The position numbers and the translations under genes were made by a program. Shown here in pieces: positions 16,640-57,747 of a stretch of DNA of 64,000 nucleotides. Each line of letters opens with the position of its first letter. Position 1 is the first letter of the stretch. Origin of the DNA: Escherichia phage FEC14. The notes under the pieces are model-generated. The model ran no database searches. It saw only the letters and a list, made by a program, of their open reading frames with translations, and had not been told where the DNA came from. The stretch is from sequence record MG383452; one strand, 5' to 3'.

Positions 16640-17222
16640 TGGCGGGAATTGTAAAGCACCTTGGTGACACTCATCTTGGGCATAAGAAGGTCTTTAAACC
16701 GCGTGGATTTGATACACAGGAAGCCCATGACGCTGCGGTCATTGACAGTATCTTTCAGGGGTTGAAGTCTCGGGACGTTCTTGAACTGGCTGGTGATATA
16801 TGCTTCATCGGGGCTGAAGGGTTCATTCGCCTGATGCGGGAGGGTGCCAAGCGAAACATTGATGAGTTTAAGCGACGCCCCGTTCCCGATGACTGGCGTC
16901 CGAACTTTATCATCAAGGTGGCACAAGGCAACCATGACAGCTTTAAGATGTTGTTGTCTCTGTATCTGGACGGCTGGATTAGCTCCTTCGGCGCTATGTA
17001 TGAACGTGACACGCCTGTTGGCCGTGTGTTGACACGCCTGTTGGCCGTGTGTTGACAACACATGTTCCTTATCAATTAGACCGTTGGGCGTATAATATCC
17101 ATGGTCATCTTCACGAAAATATTCGCGAAGAGCGCGAATACCTGAACTGCAGTTGGGAACAATTCAAGCGTCCTGTAACCCTGGCTGAGTTGTTATACAC
17201 AAATTTAGGAATTGTATTATGA
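16639..17222 (+). pseudogene. calcineurin-like metallophosphoesterase, frameshifted by a 23-bp tandem duplication
   Basis: N-terminal part carries 'GDTHLGH', 'GDICF', 'GNHD' motifs and stops at 17053-17055. The 'HGHLHE' motif continues in another frame to a TGA at 17220-17222. Removing one 23-bp copy restores a single ~192-aa ORF. Confidence 0.75.
17008..17053 (+). repeat. perfect 23-bp tandem direct duplication (2 copies) inside the metallophosphoesterase gene
   Basis: 'gacacgcctgttggccgtgtgtt' twice in tandem, followed by a partial 'gaca'. Two track ORFs end in the same 'TRLLAVC*' with stops exactly 23 nt apart (17032, 17055). Confidence 0.9.
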
Positions 17223-30576: not shown

Positions 30577-30688
30577 TAACGTTTCCTCTTAAATGGGATG
30601 ATCAGGGCTATGATTAACAGCATAGCTGTGATCACTCCGCATGCGATAAGACCGAATGCAAATGCTTTCAAAACAAATTGTAAAAGAA

Positions 30689-31882
30689 TCATAATTTCCT
30701 CAGTTTTGCCCTTGTAATCTGAGTTTGTTTAATACCTTTGAATTCGGTCAATTCTTTGACACGACCTCGAATGATCATATCGCCTTCTAAAAACTCGGTT
30801 TCCATATAGGAAGTCTTCCATGTAATGGTATTGCCTTCCTTGGTTTTGAAAGTATACAGATACGTGTCACCATAATCAGATGAATACAGGAAAATCCTTG
30901 CTTCAAATTTGACCTGTGCTTCTAACATTTCACCAACTTCACCAACCCAATTTGATACAGTGCGCGTTTGGCGGGGGGTGTGGATATAATCATAATACTT
31001 TGCTGCTCCCCAACGAACTGTTGTTGAGTCTTTAACAAGGTGATAACCAGGTTCGCACATACGTTTCAGCCGGACGTTGAAATCGTTATTTTCAGACAAC
31101 GATGCGATGAAAAGCATCATATGATACATCTCTGATTGAGCATCTTCACGGGCTTTAACAGCCTTGTTATAGAATATATCAATGTCAGAACCTTTCTCCG
31201 GACGAGTCCCGCTAGAGATATGACCAAGAACTCGACCAAAATCATCACTTTTAATGCTCATGCCCGACAGCAAAACCTGAAAGCATTTACACAAATATCC
31301 TTCTGTGTCAACATAATCTGGTTCATTAACCCGATAAATCCCTTCTGGGTCATCTTCATCGGGGGTAAACATTTCGTGAATAGACATGTAATAAGACATA
31401 ACCGCATCAAGGGATTTCTGATGCGGGACATAATGATGCATACAGCTGCTACCCACGAGCATCTGTGCGCCAGATTGTTCGTTACGAACGACATATGTGT
31501 TATGACGACGCACAGATTTGTTGCAATGCTCGCACCAAGATACGTTTTCAGCTTCAAATCTTTGAACGAAATTTGGGTGGATGTCATCTGACAGTTTATT
31601 CAGAATGACTTTTGGATACTGGTGGTTGAATTGTCCAATAATGCTCCACCCGCCGTAGGAAACGGGGCGGTCGATGCCTTCACCAGTGAGTGTACAATCC
31701 TGCCACCACCGATAGAATTTTTCACCAGTGATAGAATCGCGGTGTTGTGTTTTGTATGGTTCACTGAACTCAACAAGAGGGAACTCGAGTTTCAGGCGGT
31801 TTGCCGTTCTTTCAAGTTTGGCAAGACGTTCCTTGACACGACCAATGTTATCAATTGGGATGCTGAAGGTCTTGGCTTTCAT
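30689..31882 (-). CDS. hypothetical protein
   Basis: 397-aa ORF with 'GAGAGG' SD; central 'SWCEHCNKS...H' Cys/His segment. Confidence 0.6.
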   Translation of the reverse strand: MKAKTFSIPIDNIGRVKERLAKLERTANRLKLEFPLVEFSEPYKTQHRDSITGEKFYRWWQDCTLTGEGIDRPVSYGGWSIIGQFNHQYPKVILNKLSDDIHPNFVQRFEAENVSWCEHCNKSVRRHNTYVVRNEQSGAQMLVGSSCMHHYVPHQKSLDAVMSYYMSIHEMFTPDEDDPEGIYRVNEPDYVDTEGYLCKCFQVLLSGMSIKSDDFGRVLGHISSGTRPEKGSDIDIFYNKAVKAREDAQSEMYHMMLFIASLSENNDFNVRLKRMCEPGYHLVKDSTTVRWGAAKYYDYIHTPRQTRTVSNWVGEVGEMLEAQVKFEARIFLYSSDYGDTYLYTFKTKEGNTITWKTSYMETEFLEGDMIIRGRVKELTEFKGIKQTQITRAKLRKL

Positions 31883-31919
31883 TTTTGCCTCTCATGATGT
31901 AGTGAAACTTTTCAATGTA

Positions 31920-31970
31920 GGTTAAATGATAGCCGCAAGTTTTATTGAAGTAAAGTTTTATTGAAGTAAA
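31920..31970 (-). promoter_or_regulatory. putative T4-early-type promoter with duplicated -35 region (coordinates approximate)
   Basis: Minus strand reads 'CTTTACTTCAATAAAAC' x2, then 17 nt, then 'TATCAT', upstream of the 30689..31882 gene. Confidence 0.4.
31938..31969 (-). repeat. perfect 16-bp tandem direct repeat (2 copies)
   Basis: 'agttttattgaagtaa' twice in tandem, directly abutting the hairpin 'aaagcccaacaaatgttgggcttt' (31967-31990). Confidence 0.85.
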
Positions 31971-31999
31971 GCCCAACAAATGTTGGGCTTTAACCGATA

Positions 32000-32302
32000 T
32001 TATTCATCCGTGCGATCAGGCGCGGCGTTAGGATACAGCGACTCATAAAGATCTTGGTATTTGGCGCTGGTCTCGATGGTCTTGGTATAAGTTCCACCAG
32101 CGCGATCGGTAACGACTTTGCGCAGATCAACGGCTTTGATGCCTGTTTCTTTTGCCAATTCAGCCAGGGCTTCGGTAACAAAGGTCTGTTCAGACTTGAT
32201 ACGGATCTGGGCGGCGCGACAATTTTCTAAAGTCTGCATCATCTTTTGACGCAGTTTTGGATCAGAAGGGAGTTGATAAAAACCAATTTGTTCAACTGAC
32301 AT
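32000..32302 (-). CDS. hypothetical protein
   Basis: 100-aa ORF. Confidence 0.45.
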   Translation of the reverse strand: MSVEQIGFYQLPSDPKLRQKMMQTLENCRAAQIRIKSEQTFVTEALAELAKETGIKAVDLRKVVTDRAGGTYTKTIETSAKYQDLYESLYPNAAPDRTDE

Positions 32303-32647: not shown

Positions 32648-32710
32648 GATGTGCTCCTGGGTTAATATTCAGATCATAGAGATTATACCCTATGATCACC
32701 ATTATTGAAG

Positions 32711-34141: not shown

Positions 34142-34471
34142 CTACCCCACCAAAATTTTGTTGTAATCCTGAGCATTTTGCTGTATCAGATCAACTAAGA
34201 TATCCCCAGACACCACAGTGAACAAGTCATTTTCTTTCAAATTAACAAATAACAAACGCCATGGTTTCTTCAATATATCTGTTGTAAAGGATAACCGAGG
34301 CTCTCCATTGTCTAAATGGACACCCACTTTCCCTATACGAAATTGAACGCCACGGAATTTGCCTTCCGTTATTTCGATTATTGCTAACTGATCAGAACCA
34401 GGGTCGATGATTTTGTAATTAACGGGGGAGTCTCCTCCCCCTGCAATATTACTCGGTTGTTTTGATGACAT
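34142..34471 (-). CDS. hypothetical protein
   Basis: 109-aa ORF between uvsX and the helicase gene. Confidence 0.45.
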   Translation of the reverse strand: MSSKQPSNIAGGGDSPVNYKIIDPGSDQLAIIEITEGKFRGVQFRIGKVGVHLDNGEPRLSFTTDILKKPWRLLFVNLKENDLFTVVSGDILVDLIQQNAQDYNKILVG

Positions 34472-51160: not shown

Positions 51161-51237
51161 GATATAGTTCCTGCTATTCAATTTGTGGCGTTTGCCAATA
51201 AATTACTGGGAAGTATAGGCGGAAAGGTTTCAAAAGT

Positions 51238-51260
51238 AAAGCCCCTCATTGAGGGGCTTT
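51238..51260. terminator. rho-independent terminator
   Basis: 'aaagcccctcattgaggggcttt', 7 nt downstream of the glutaredoxin gene stop. Confidence 0.6.
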
Positions 51261-57574: not shown

Positions 57575-57724
57575 GATGTAATTCCTCATAATGTAGTTGG
57601 GTCGTTTCACTTTTCATTCGGCGGGGTGTTGTGTACCGCCCTATGTGAACTATAATAGTGCATGATTATTGAAGAGTAAAGTCTTTTTCAATAAATTTTT
57701 AAATTATTTTTGAAGTATTTTAAA

Positions 57725-57747
57725 AGGCCTCGTAGAATGAGGCCTAG
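57725..57747 (-). terminator. rho-independent terminator
   Basis: 'aaggcctcgtagaatgaggcct'; on the minus strand followed by 'tttt'. Confidence 0.55.

Follow-up and report, generated by a model that had tools for sequence, protein, structure and literature searches.

A tandemly repeated 16-bp unit within a conserved putative terminator-promoter cassette of Kuttervirus phages

A 16-bp tandem repeat upstream of a 397-aa gene of Escherichia phage FEC14 (MG383452) appears, from comparison of sequences, to be an old, fixed and lineage-wide part of a conserved terminator-promoter cassette. It was analysed within a stretch of 64,000 nucleotides of this phage, hereafter the window. In the preferred reading, held with a probability of about 0.6, the repeat is a fixed part of the cassette, its proximal unit provides the -35 region of the promoter, and its distal unit, of single origin, would provide the upstream flank and a shortened U-tract for the preceding terminator. 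The sequence-only reading of this DNA had described the repeat as a slippage-type duplication of an early promoter; its observation was confirmed, and its interpretation partly supported.

Results

The repeat and its genomic setting

Tandem Repeats Finder reported the region 31937-31971 with a period of 16, 2.2 copies, 100% matches and a score of 70, and a repeat search returned two identical 16-mers at 31937-31952 and 31953-31968. When only perfect tandem duplications with a period of 10-50 and at least two full copies were counted, the window contained three, against a mean of 0.08 across 100 dinucleotide shuffles. These results bear out the 16-bp tandem duplication, which is real and far above chance.

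On the minus strand, the distal unit TTTACTTCAATAAAAC (31955..31970) fills promoter positions from about -51 to -36 and doubles as the terminator tail, while the proximal unit TTTACTTCAATAAAAC (31939..31954) carries the -35 hexamer TTTACT at 31954-31949. A TTCAAT box is present within each unit, at 31965-31960 (distal) and 31949-31944 (proximal). The stop codon of the 100-aa gene (32002-32000) is followed, in minus-strand order, by the hairpin (31992-31967), the distal unit, the proximal unit, TTGCGGC, TATCAT, a 43-nt leader and the ATG at 31882.

The window can be assigned by its sequence to a CBA120/SFP10-like Kuttervirus of the Ackermannviridae, and the 1.1 kb around the repeat shares 98.5-99.2% identity with the Salmonella/Escherichia phages Se-B, S117, SFP10 and CBA120. 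The cassette sits between a two-gene unit (110-aa and 100-aa) and the 397-aa gene in a replication/recombination cluster, with uvsX and gp41 helicase homologues upstream and a DNA ligase homologue downstream. A promoter-like TTCAAT-N16-TATAAT (32682..32709, minus strand) precedes the gene pair closed by the hairpin, giving a local layout of promoter-like site, two genes, hairpin, promoter and 397-aa gene. A promoter or gene on the plus strand was ruled out, as every gene from about 25.4 to 41.1 kb is on the minus strand and the promoter scan showed no plus-strand site in 31900-32000.

The 100-aa gene (32000..32302, minus strand) belongs to phrog_639, labelled 'transcriptional regulator' (E 4e-30). 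A precomputed PF11126 hit is present in about 13/32 homologues of its product, and one of 21 family members reaches PF11126, at E 0.008. The label rests on a weak similarity to T4 DsbA. The 397-aa gene (30689..31882, minus strand) belongs to phrog_2319 (E 4e-171), whose function is unknown. Its product has a CxxC...CxH motif in which C117, C120 and C147 are invariant and H149 is nearly so. The best matches of its predicted structure (pLDDT 84) are OB-fold ssDNA-binding proteins, all of them weak (E at least 2e-3), and the model points weakly to an SSB-like OB fold. Since phage pertopsoe lacks the 397-aa gene and the match in Mansal is truncated in the same way, this gene is dispensable. Searches of Pfam gave no hit for the 397-aa or 110-aa protein and, for the 100-aa protein, only DUF4078 at a sub-threshold E of 0.004; NCBIfam gave no hit for any of the three, and a PDB sequence search found no significant match for the 397-aa or 100-aa protein.

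The proximal unit as part of a probable promoter

The TTTACT-N17-TATCAT geometry that had been proposed for the 397-aa gene is indeed present at 31954-31926, with the -10 hexamer TATCAT (31926..31931, minus strand) 17 nt downstream of TTTACT. The two hexamers match sigma70 at 4/6 (TTTACT) and 5/6 (TATCAT) positions; their 17-nt spacer falls in the 16-18-nt range of sigma70-type promoters, and the -10 has A at -11 and T at -7. This 9/12 match alone is at chance level, with 37 such sites in 15 kb versus 27.8 +/- 5.7 in shuffled sequence. The weight lies on the comparison of relatives. Three lineages, Kuttervirus, Taipeivirus and Aglimvirinae, retain TTTACT-N17-TA..AT despite divergence in the 3' half of the spacer. 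The orthologous -10 hexamers, all at the identical 17-nt spacing, are TATCAT, TATATT, TAATAT and TATTAT, and the proximal TTTACT is found in all lineages examined except SilasIsHot (TTTAAT). The conservation of hexamers and spacing across lineages makes the proximal copy a credible -35 region, and the proximal unit very probably supplies the -35 of a single promoter of the host sigma70 type, from which the 397-aa gene would be transcribed. From standard sigma70 geometry, transcription is predicted to start near 31918. The 43-nt leader (31883..31925, minus strand) contains a Shine-Dalgarno sequence GAGAGG at 31893-31888 and a pattern, ATTGAA..GTT..CT..ATCATG.G, that is kept across subfamilies.

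Variation among nine duplication-carrying phages was counted in the intergenic region and at third codon positions. Variable sites amounted to 9/116 in the former against 72/321 (22%) in the latter (Fisher P 0.0003). The proximal unit (0/16) and the rest of the spacer with the -10 (0/13) had no variable site in a total of 29, and the leader had one in 43. The distal unit varied at two of 16 positions, a rate indistinguishable from neutral, and only at 31966 (C/A/T) and 31965 (T/C), which are positions 5-6 of its hexamer.

A search of the literature found no transcriptome and no start-site or termination mapping for any member of the Ackermannviridae. According to Kutter et al., informatics could not reveal the early promoters of CBA120 (PMC3184105), and the AG3 paper gives no promoter for the homologue of the 397-aa gene (PMC3121705).

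The terminator-type hairpin

The hairpin UAAAGCCCAACA-UU-UGUUGGGCUUUA (DNA TAAAGCCCAACA-TT-TGTTGGGCTTTA; 31967..31992, minus strand) is of the terminator type. Its 12-nt arms (31967-31978 and 31981-31992) are 100% complementary, with a G+C core in which 31988-31982 pairs with 31977-31971, and the RNA fold has an energy of -16.9 kcal/mol (z -6.0). Of its pairs, 11 are consensus pairs, and compensatory changes from A-U to G-C and from C-G to U-A occur in Aglimvirinae. The element thus has the stable, G+C-rich and compensated hairpin of an intrinsic terminator. It had been described as directly abutting the repeat; the hairpin is real, but the distal unit shares its first 3-4 bases with the 3' arm. 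The homologous hairpin is listed as terminator Torf057 in phage AG3 (PMC3121705), and its homologues are annotated as terminators in Mutine, Magnus and KWBSE43-6.

The U-tail is UUUACUUCA in the window (5 U in 9) versus UUUUUAUUU in Mutine. With d'Aubenton-Carafa-type weights, the T-tail score was 2.93 in the window, the lowest among the orthologues, versus 4.55 in Mutine and 3.4-4.2 in the others. A consensus terminator scan did not report the window hairpin because three of the U's pair with the upstream AAA. Rfam gave a single, chance-level hit on the cassette (E 0.69; 11.8 bits versus a gathering score of 40).

Distribution and copy number

An 81-bp query spanning the hairpin, both units and the -10 matched at full length in 122 phage records, 81 of them at a level of at least 99%, which over 81 nt means identical; the region in CBA120 and kage is identical to that of the window. 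A 34-nt segment is already carried as a repeat_region in the GenBank records of kage, moki, heyday, aagejoakim, bering and dinky. Synthetic one-unit and three-unit queries run against 50,697 phage records gave no match free of a 16-nt gap, and exact-pattern scans of IMG/VR found no one-copy and no three-copy contig and the two-copy form in five. The copy number is always two, and most CBA120/SFP10/Det7-like phages, like the window, have two identical units. A comparison of copy number with related phages had been proposed as a check, with a single copy as the outcome that would speak against the duplication; two copies were found throughout. As a description of a recent or unstable event, the slippage claim fails on the same evidence: 122 records, 81 of them identical, a repeat_region already annotated, and no one-copy or three-copy form. 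Flanking sequences within the duplication clade diverge by up to 5-7%. No paper discussing the 16-bp repeat was found in the literature searched.

Another tandem duplication, of 23 bp, is present at 17007-17057. It is absent from all 128 relatives found and truncates a Ser/Thr phosphatase gene. The 16-bp repeat had been called the second slippage-type duplication of the window; the private state fits the 23-bp duplication, while the 16-bp repeat is neither private nor unstable.

The ancestral state and the proposed origin of the distal unit

The Mutine/KE27 lineage (Kuttervirus, about 90% identity) has TTTTTATTTGAAACC after the hairpin, next to a single TTTACTTCAATAAAAC with one TTCAAT box. 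The slot of the distal unit is occupied by TTTCTTA(T/C)TTTCAAAACC in Taipeivirus and by TTTT(T)AAYTTCAATAAC in Aglimvirinae (Ag3, YX22, Ds25CZ). From the stem to the -35 there are 16 nt in the window, 15 in Mutine/KE27, 18 in Taipeivirus and 16-17 in Aglimvirinae. Since the hairpin-to--35 length is conserved, a T-rich segment of 15-18 nt was replaced by the distal copy and no 16 bp were gained, which rules out a simple 16-bp insertion.

Coding flanks of about 980 nt were used for a neighbour-joining tree, which placed all phages with a near-perfect repeat in one clade, sister to Mutine/KE27. The repeat would then have arisen once, in the common ancestor of the main lineage of Kuttervirus, when Mutine/KE27 had already split off. 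A copy of the -35 region would have overwritten the T-rich segment that previously separated the hairpin from the -35, probably through slippage (in two steps) or a template switch at the CTTT microhomologies GGGCTTT / AACCTTT. Alternatively, an older imperfect tandem repeat may have been re-homogenised at the base of the clade. The Aglimvirinae slot is an imperfect copy of the next unit (13/16; P about 0.005 versus shuffles, range 0.005-0.03), while in Mutine and Taipeivirus the tandem resemblance of the slot to the next unit was not significant versus shuffles; an ancient tandem repeat in all lineages is thus supported only in part. A paralogous cassette of SFP10, at about 79.6 kb, consists of a hairpin, TTTTTACTTTCAAAGGC, TTTACTTGAATAAAC, N8 and TATTAT and contains two TTTAC units. 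Given the Aglimvirinae and SFP10 cassettes, the tandem layout may predate the single event proposed here.

The distal hexamer is TTTACT in the window, CBA120, kage and PMBT18, TTTAAT in GG32, SJ3, PM10, dinky and phage 38, TTTATT in bering, and TTTACC in STML-13-1, N6 and SeSz-1. These states do not sort along the flank tree, which points to recurrent mutation or recombination, and the tree does not resolve the order of TTTACT and TTTAAT.

Sister promoters and the TTCAAT motif

A second, similar promoter that had been noted near 57.6 kb is present as TTTACT-CTTCAATAATCATGCAC-TATTAT (57652..57680, minus strand; TTTACTCTTCAATAATCATGCACTATTAT at 57680-57652). It is flanked by the inverted repeat TTATTGAA/TTCAATAA and preceded by phased A-tracts (Tandem Repeats Finder 57695-57726, period 11). 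In the window and the rest of SFP10, TTTACT(N0-2)TTCAATAA occurs at four loci only. Each is a minus-strand site in front of a gene and has its -10 at a spacing of 16-17 nt. The sister promoters have AAAATTTATTGAAAAAG in the slot that matches the distal unit.

TTCAATA/TCAATAA was the top 7-mer of the intergenic regions of this genome, found in 17/100 oriented regions with 19 occurrences versus 2.5 expected, and it outranked the late-promoter motif ACTAAAT/CTAAATA. The arrangement TTCAAT-N12-16-TATAAT occurs five times in the window versus 0.05 expected, on the minus strand in every case; in this genome the spacing ranges from N12 to N16 and has its mode at N14. At the N14 spacing, no sigma70-like -35 is present at 17 nt. 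The TTCAAT motif probably goes back to the 2012 'Viunalikevirus' paper in Arch Virol. TTCAAT[N14]TATAAT is published as a 'unique regulatory motif' of these phages (PMC7283392).

Discussion

Role of the distal unit

The duplication had been thought to alter the architecture of the promoter. This holds in so far as the proximal copy is a credible -35 region, but neither an additional 16 bp nor a second promoter was found. In the preferred reading, the distal unit would act as the upstream flank of the promoter, with its A-tract at about -43 to -37, in the position of an UP element. It would also shorten the U-tract from UUUUUAUUU to UUUACUUCA, cutting it to UUUA. The shorter tract would weaken termination and allow more read-through from the 110-aa/100-aa unit into the 397-aa gene. 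On balance, a single promoter whose upstream flank is altered, together with increased read-through, would be the most likely result.

The main rival to this flank and read-through reading is that the distal unit is a neutral relic, left by one ancestral duplication or replacement that was fixed by drift or hitch-hiking, and has no effect. We consider it improbable, but it has the 2/16 variation of the distal unit on its side, a level that cannot be told apart from the 22% at third codon positions, and the Mutine/KE27 and Taipeivirus cassettes presumably work with a quite different sequence in the slot. What counts against a neutral relic is that the length of the slot is held at 15-18 nt in all lineages, that 10 of the 16 distal positions (TCAATAAAAC) are invariant, a weakly significant result, and that the lack of any copy change in more than 120 genomes suggests selection against loss or gain.

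A less probable explanation takes the two TTCAAT boxes as tandem sites for a phage or host factor, such as an activator of the type of T4 MotA at middle promoters or an operator protein. The duplication would then double a regulatory site in addition to a -35. The excess of TTCAATA/TCAATAA and of TTCAAT-N12-16-TATAAT, the publication of TTCAAT[N14]TATAAT as a regulatory motif (PMC7283392), the N14 class without a sigma70-like -35, and the TTATTGAA/TTCAATAA inverted repeats around the -35 of the sister promoters would all fit such sites. The boxes of the repeat, however, lie 12 nt (proximal) and 28 nt (distal) from the -10 rather than 14, Mutine/KE27 has a single box, MotA/AsiA homologues are not known in these phages (PMC3184105), and the neighbouring 'regulator' is a weak DsbA-like protein. 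Moreover, the spacer box is degenerate (TTCAAG) in Aglimvirinae although TTTACT-N17 is retained, so that the conserved feature here is the sigma70-type geometry and not the box. An extended form of this idea, which we regard as similarly doubtful, is that TTCAAT(AA) might be the factor site of a promoter class with non-sigma70 spacing, comparable to a MotA box, that the four TTTACT+TTCAATAA promoters, among them the present one with its two boxes, might be dual early/middle switches, and that the TTATTGAA...TTCAATAA palindromes around the -35 of the sister promoters might be dimer operators. If true, it would open the way to the early/middle transcription programme, which the informatics of Kutter et al. 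(2011) could not reveal.

It is very unlikely that the distal unit is a second -35, giving tandem promoters with starts about 16 nt apart for the 397-aa gene. In 81 records the distal and proximal hexamers are both TTTACT, but the hexamers 16, 17 and 18 nt downstream of the distal one are TCAATA, CAATAA and AATAAA, none with T at -7, and the promoter scan reported the proximal site only. The distal hexamer is also the mutable part of the promoter region (TTTAAT, TTTATT, TTTACC), while the proximal one is invariant. With no -10 at 16-18 nt and a variable hexamer, this candidate was rejected.

The repeat might also be a product of recent slippage, an artefact of assembly or a hypervariable repeat of the contingency type found in this genome only. 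Such an origin would suit the perfect identity of the units and the truly private 23-bp duplication elsewhere in the window, but the chance of it is negligible, the two-unit sequence being shared by five IMG/VR contigs and by 122 independent records obtained in many laboratories and on many platforms, with flanks diverged by 5-7% within the clade and no one-copy or three-copy form among the matches to the synthetic queries.

Comparison with known systems

The cassette resembles T4 early promoters, which depend on sigma70, in its TTTAC -35 core, 17-nt spacer, TATNAT -10, A-tract upstream of the -35 and position before a gene of the replication cluster. Liebig and Ruger reportedly defined the T4 early consensus in 1989 as a GTTTAC-type -35, a TATAAT -10 and an A-rich tract near -42. 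The CTTTACT, TATCAT and upstream AATAAAAC of the cassette resemble this consensus in an unscored comparison. The cassette differs in its TATCAT -10, and the TTCAATAA box of the spacer is no feature of T4. The earlier term 'T4-early-like' therefore holds as a resemblance, but the promoter carries a TTCAAT box (PMC7283392), and Kutter et al. reported CBA120 to be without T4-type early/middle regulators, with no homologues of Alt, Mod, MotA and AsiA (PMC3184105).

With the Ackermannviridae motif the repeat shares the TTCAAT box in each 16-nt unit, and one copy of the motif stands a gene pair upstream (32709-32682). The repeat differs from it in that its -10 is TATCAT and its canonically spaced TTTACT overlaps TTCAAT by one base. 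The proximal distance of 12 nt is at the edge of the range of the motif, and the distal one is far from 14 nt at 28.

UP elements of strong sigma70 promoters, of the rrnB P1 type, are contacted by alpha-CTD at -40 to -60 and have the consensus AAAWWTWTTTTnnnAAA at -38 to -59. In the distal unit, which spans -51 to -36, T's occupy -51 to -49 and A's occupy -43/-42 and -40 to -37. The match, made by eye against the consensus, is partial and moderate, and the segment doubles as a terminator tail.

Compact terminator-promoter cassettes, with a G+C hairpin followed by a -35 within 0-18 nt, are another likeness. A similar design is found at 51245 of the window (GGGGC|TTTACT-N17-TATACT) and at about 79.6 kb of SFP10, and the AG3 paper gives the hairpins of such cassettes as terminators (PMC3121705). 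The duplication clade differs in that the copied -35 region leaves UUUA as the U-tract.

The phase-variable promoter repeats of Haemophilus and Neisseria, which lie in the spacer or upstream, also consist of identical head-to-tail units within a promoter, and the CTTT microhomology would fit an origin by slippage. Here, in contrast, there are only two long units of 16 nt, and copy number does not vary among close relatives but is constant in more than 120 genomes; the repeat is therefore not a contingency locus. Taken together, these comparisons suggest that the region functions as a compact phage cassette of terminator and sigma70-type promoter that belongs fully to neither the T4-early nor the TTCAAT class.

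Significance

The 16-bp repeat alone matters little, being small, fixed, present in a well-sampled genus and already flagged in GenBank. The Kuttervirus lineages offer a natural experiment of modest value: hairpin and -35 are conserved, and the sole difference lies in the intervening 15-18 nt, a slot that is filled by a perfect copy of the -35 region, by a copy changed at hexamer position 5 or 6, or by a T-rich tract. The analysis also yields a testable set of candidate host-type promoters for the ViI-like phages, whose early promoters were reported as unidentifiable in 2011.

Promoters related to the cassette promoter

The probable promoter of the 397-aa gene belongs to a TTTACT+TTCAATAA family that is found at other loci (window 57652-57730; 30680-30770 and 34200-34290 in the SFP10 genome segments L020 and L019, respectively). 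In these sister promoters, an inverted repeat TTATTGAA...TTCAATAA, with arms of 8-11 nt, spans the -35 element. The sister promoter at about 98.2 kb of SFP10 is made of a 22-nt imperfect direct repeat, in which TTTACT and TATACT occupy equivalent positions, and phased A-tracts (TRF period 11, 57695-57726) lie upstream of the 57.7-kb promoter.

At further genomic loci, the TTTAC -35 element directly abuts terminator hairpins. Examples are the window fusion GAGGGGC|TTTACT-N17-TATACT at 51245 (region 51212-51245) and a locus at about 79.6 kb of SFP10 (L019 15590-15660), where two TTTAC units come after a hairpin. Joining a terminator to a promoter in this way, with TTTAC at the edge of the stem, is therefore a recurrent design.

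TTCAAT-TATAAT motifs

The top recurrent 7-mer of the oriented intergenic regions (window plus L019 and L020) was TTCAATA/TCAATAA, detected in 17 of 100 regions (7.6-fold enrichment). The pattern TTCAAT-N12-16-TATAAT matched five times in the window against 0.05 expected, always on the minus strand (26509, 29814, 32709, 38928 and 55010). This motif has already been published for these phages (PMC7283392). Sites with the modal N14 spacing lack a sigma70-like -35 element, and the position of their TTCAAT box recalls that of the T4 MotA box.

A 23-bp duplication in a phosphatase gene

A 23-bp tandem duplication was observed at 17007-17057 (2.2 copies, 100% identity). SFP10 and 127/127 other matching records have one copy of the unit, a 161-nt query over the region aligning to 138 nt in them; the duplication is private to the window genome. 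It frameshifts SFP_0025, the gene of a 186-aa Ser/Thr phosphatase, the ORF stopping at 17055. Either the mutation is genuine and inactivates the gene, or the duplication arose as an error of sequencing or assembly.

In the phage database, 'Enterococcus phage Efm 3-10' (OR844942) and 'Pseudomonas phage Pa-sanjiao' (MN871475) showed 98.7-98.8% identity to the Kuttervirus region around the cassette. Both are probably mislabelled or contaminated submissions.

Variation at the cassette locus

The 397-aa protein (phrog_2319, 30689-31882) has invariant Cys117, Cys120 and Cys147 and a nearly invariant His149, a pattern that looks zinc-binding-like. Its predicted OB-fold gave weak matches to the SSB-type proteins PrgE, hSSB1 and RPA70. 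A possible role for the protein is accessory ssDNA binding within the replication cluster.

Some Kutterviruses have ATTT as the loop of the cassette hairpin (31978-31981 and orthologues), and others (bering, PM10, dinky, phage 38 and SeSz-1) have the reverse complement, AAAT; Mutine and KE27 differ from each other by a similar pair. This distribution is discordant with the flank tree and suggests that the loop of the palindrome has inverted repeatedly (flip-flop).

The Kutterviruses pertopsoe and Mansal lack the 397-aa gene and the entire repeat/promoter cassette; in their place, the 100-aa gene is followed by another hairpin and by a putative HNH homing endonuclease (pertopsoe segment L010, 2076-2478). 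In SilasIsHot and Ds25CZ, a homing endonuclease lies immediately upstream of the cassette. The cassette locus seems to be a hot spot of endonuclease traffic.
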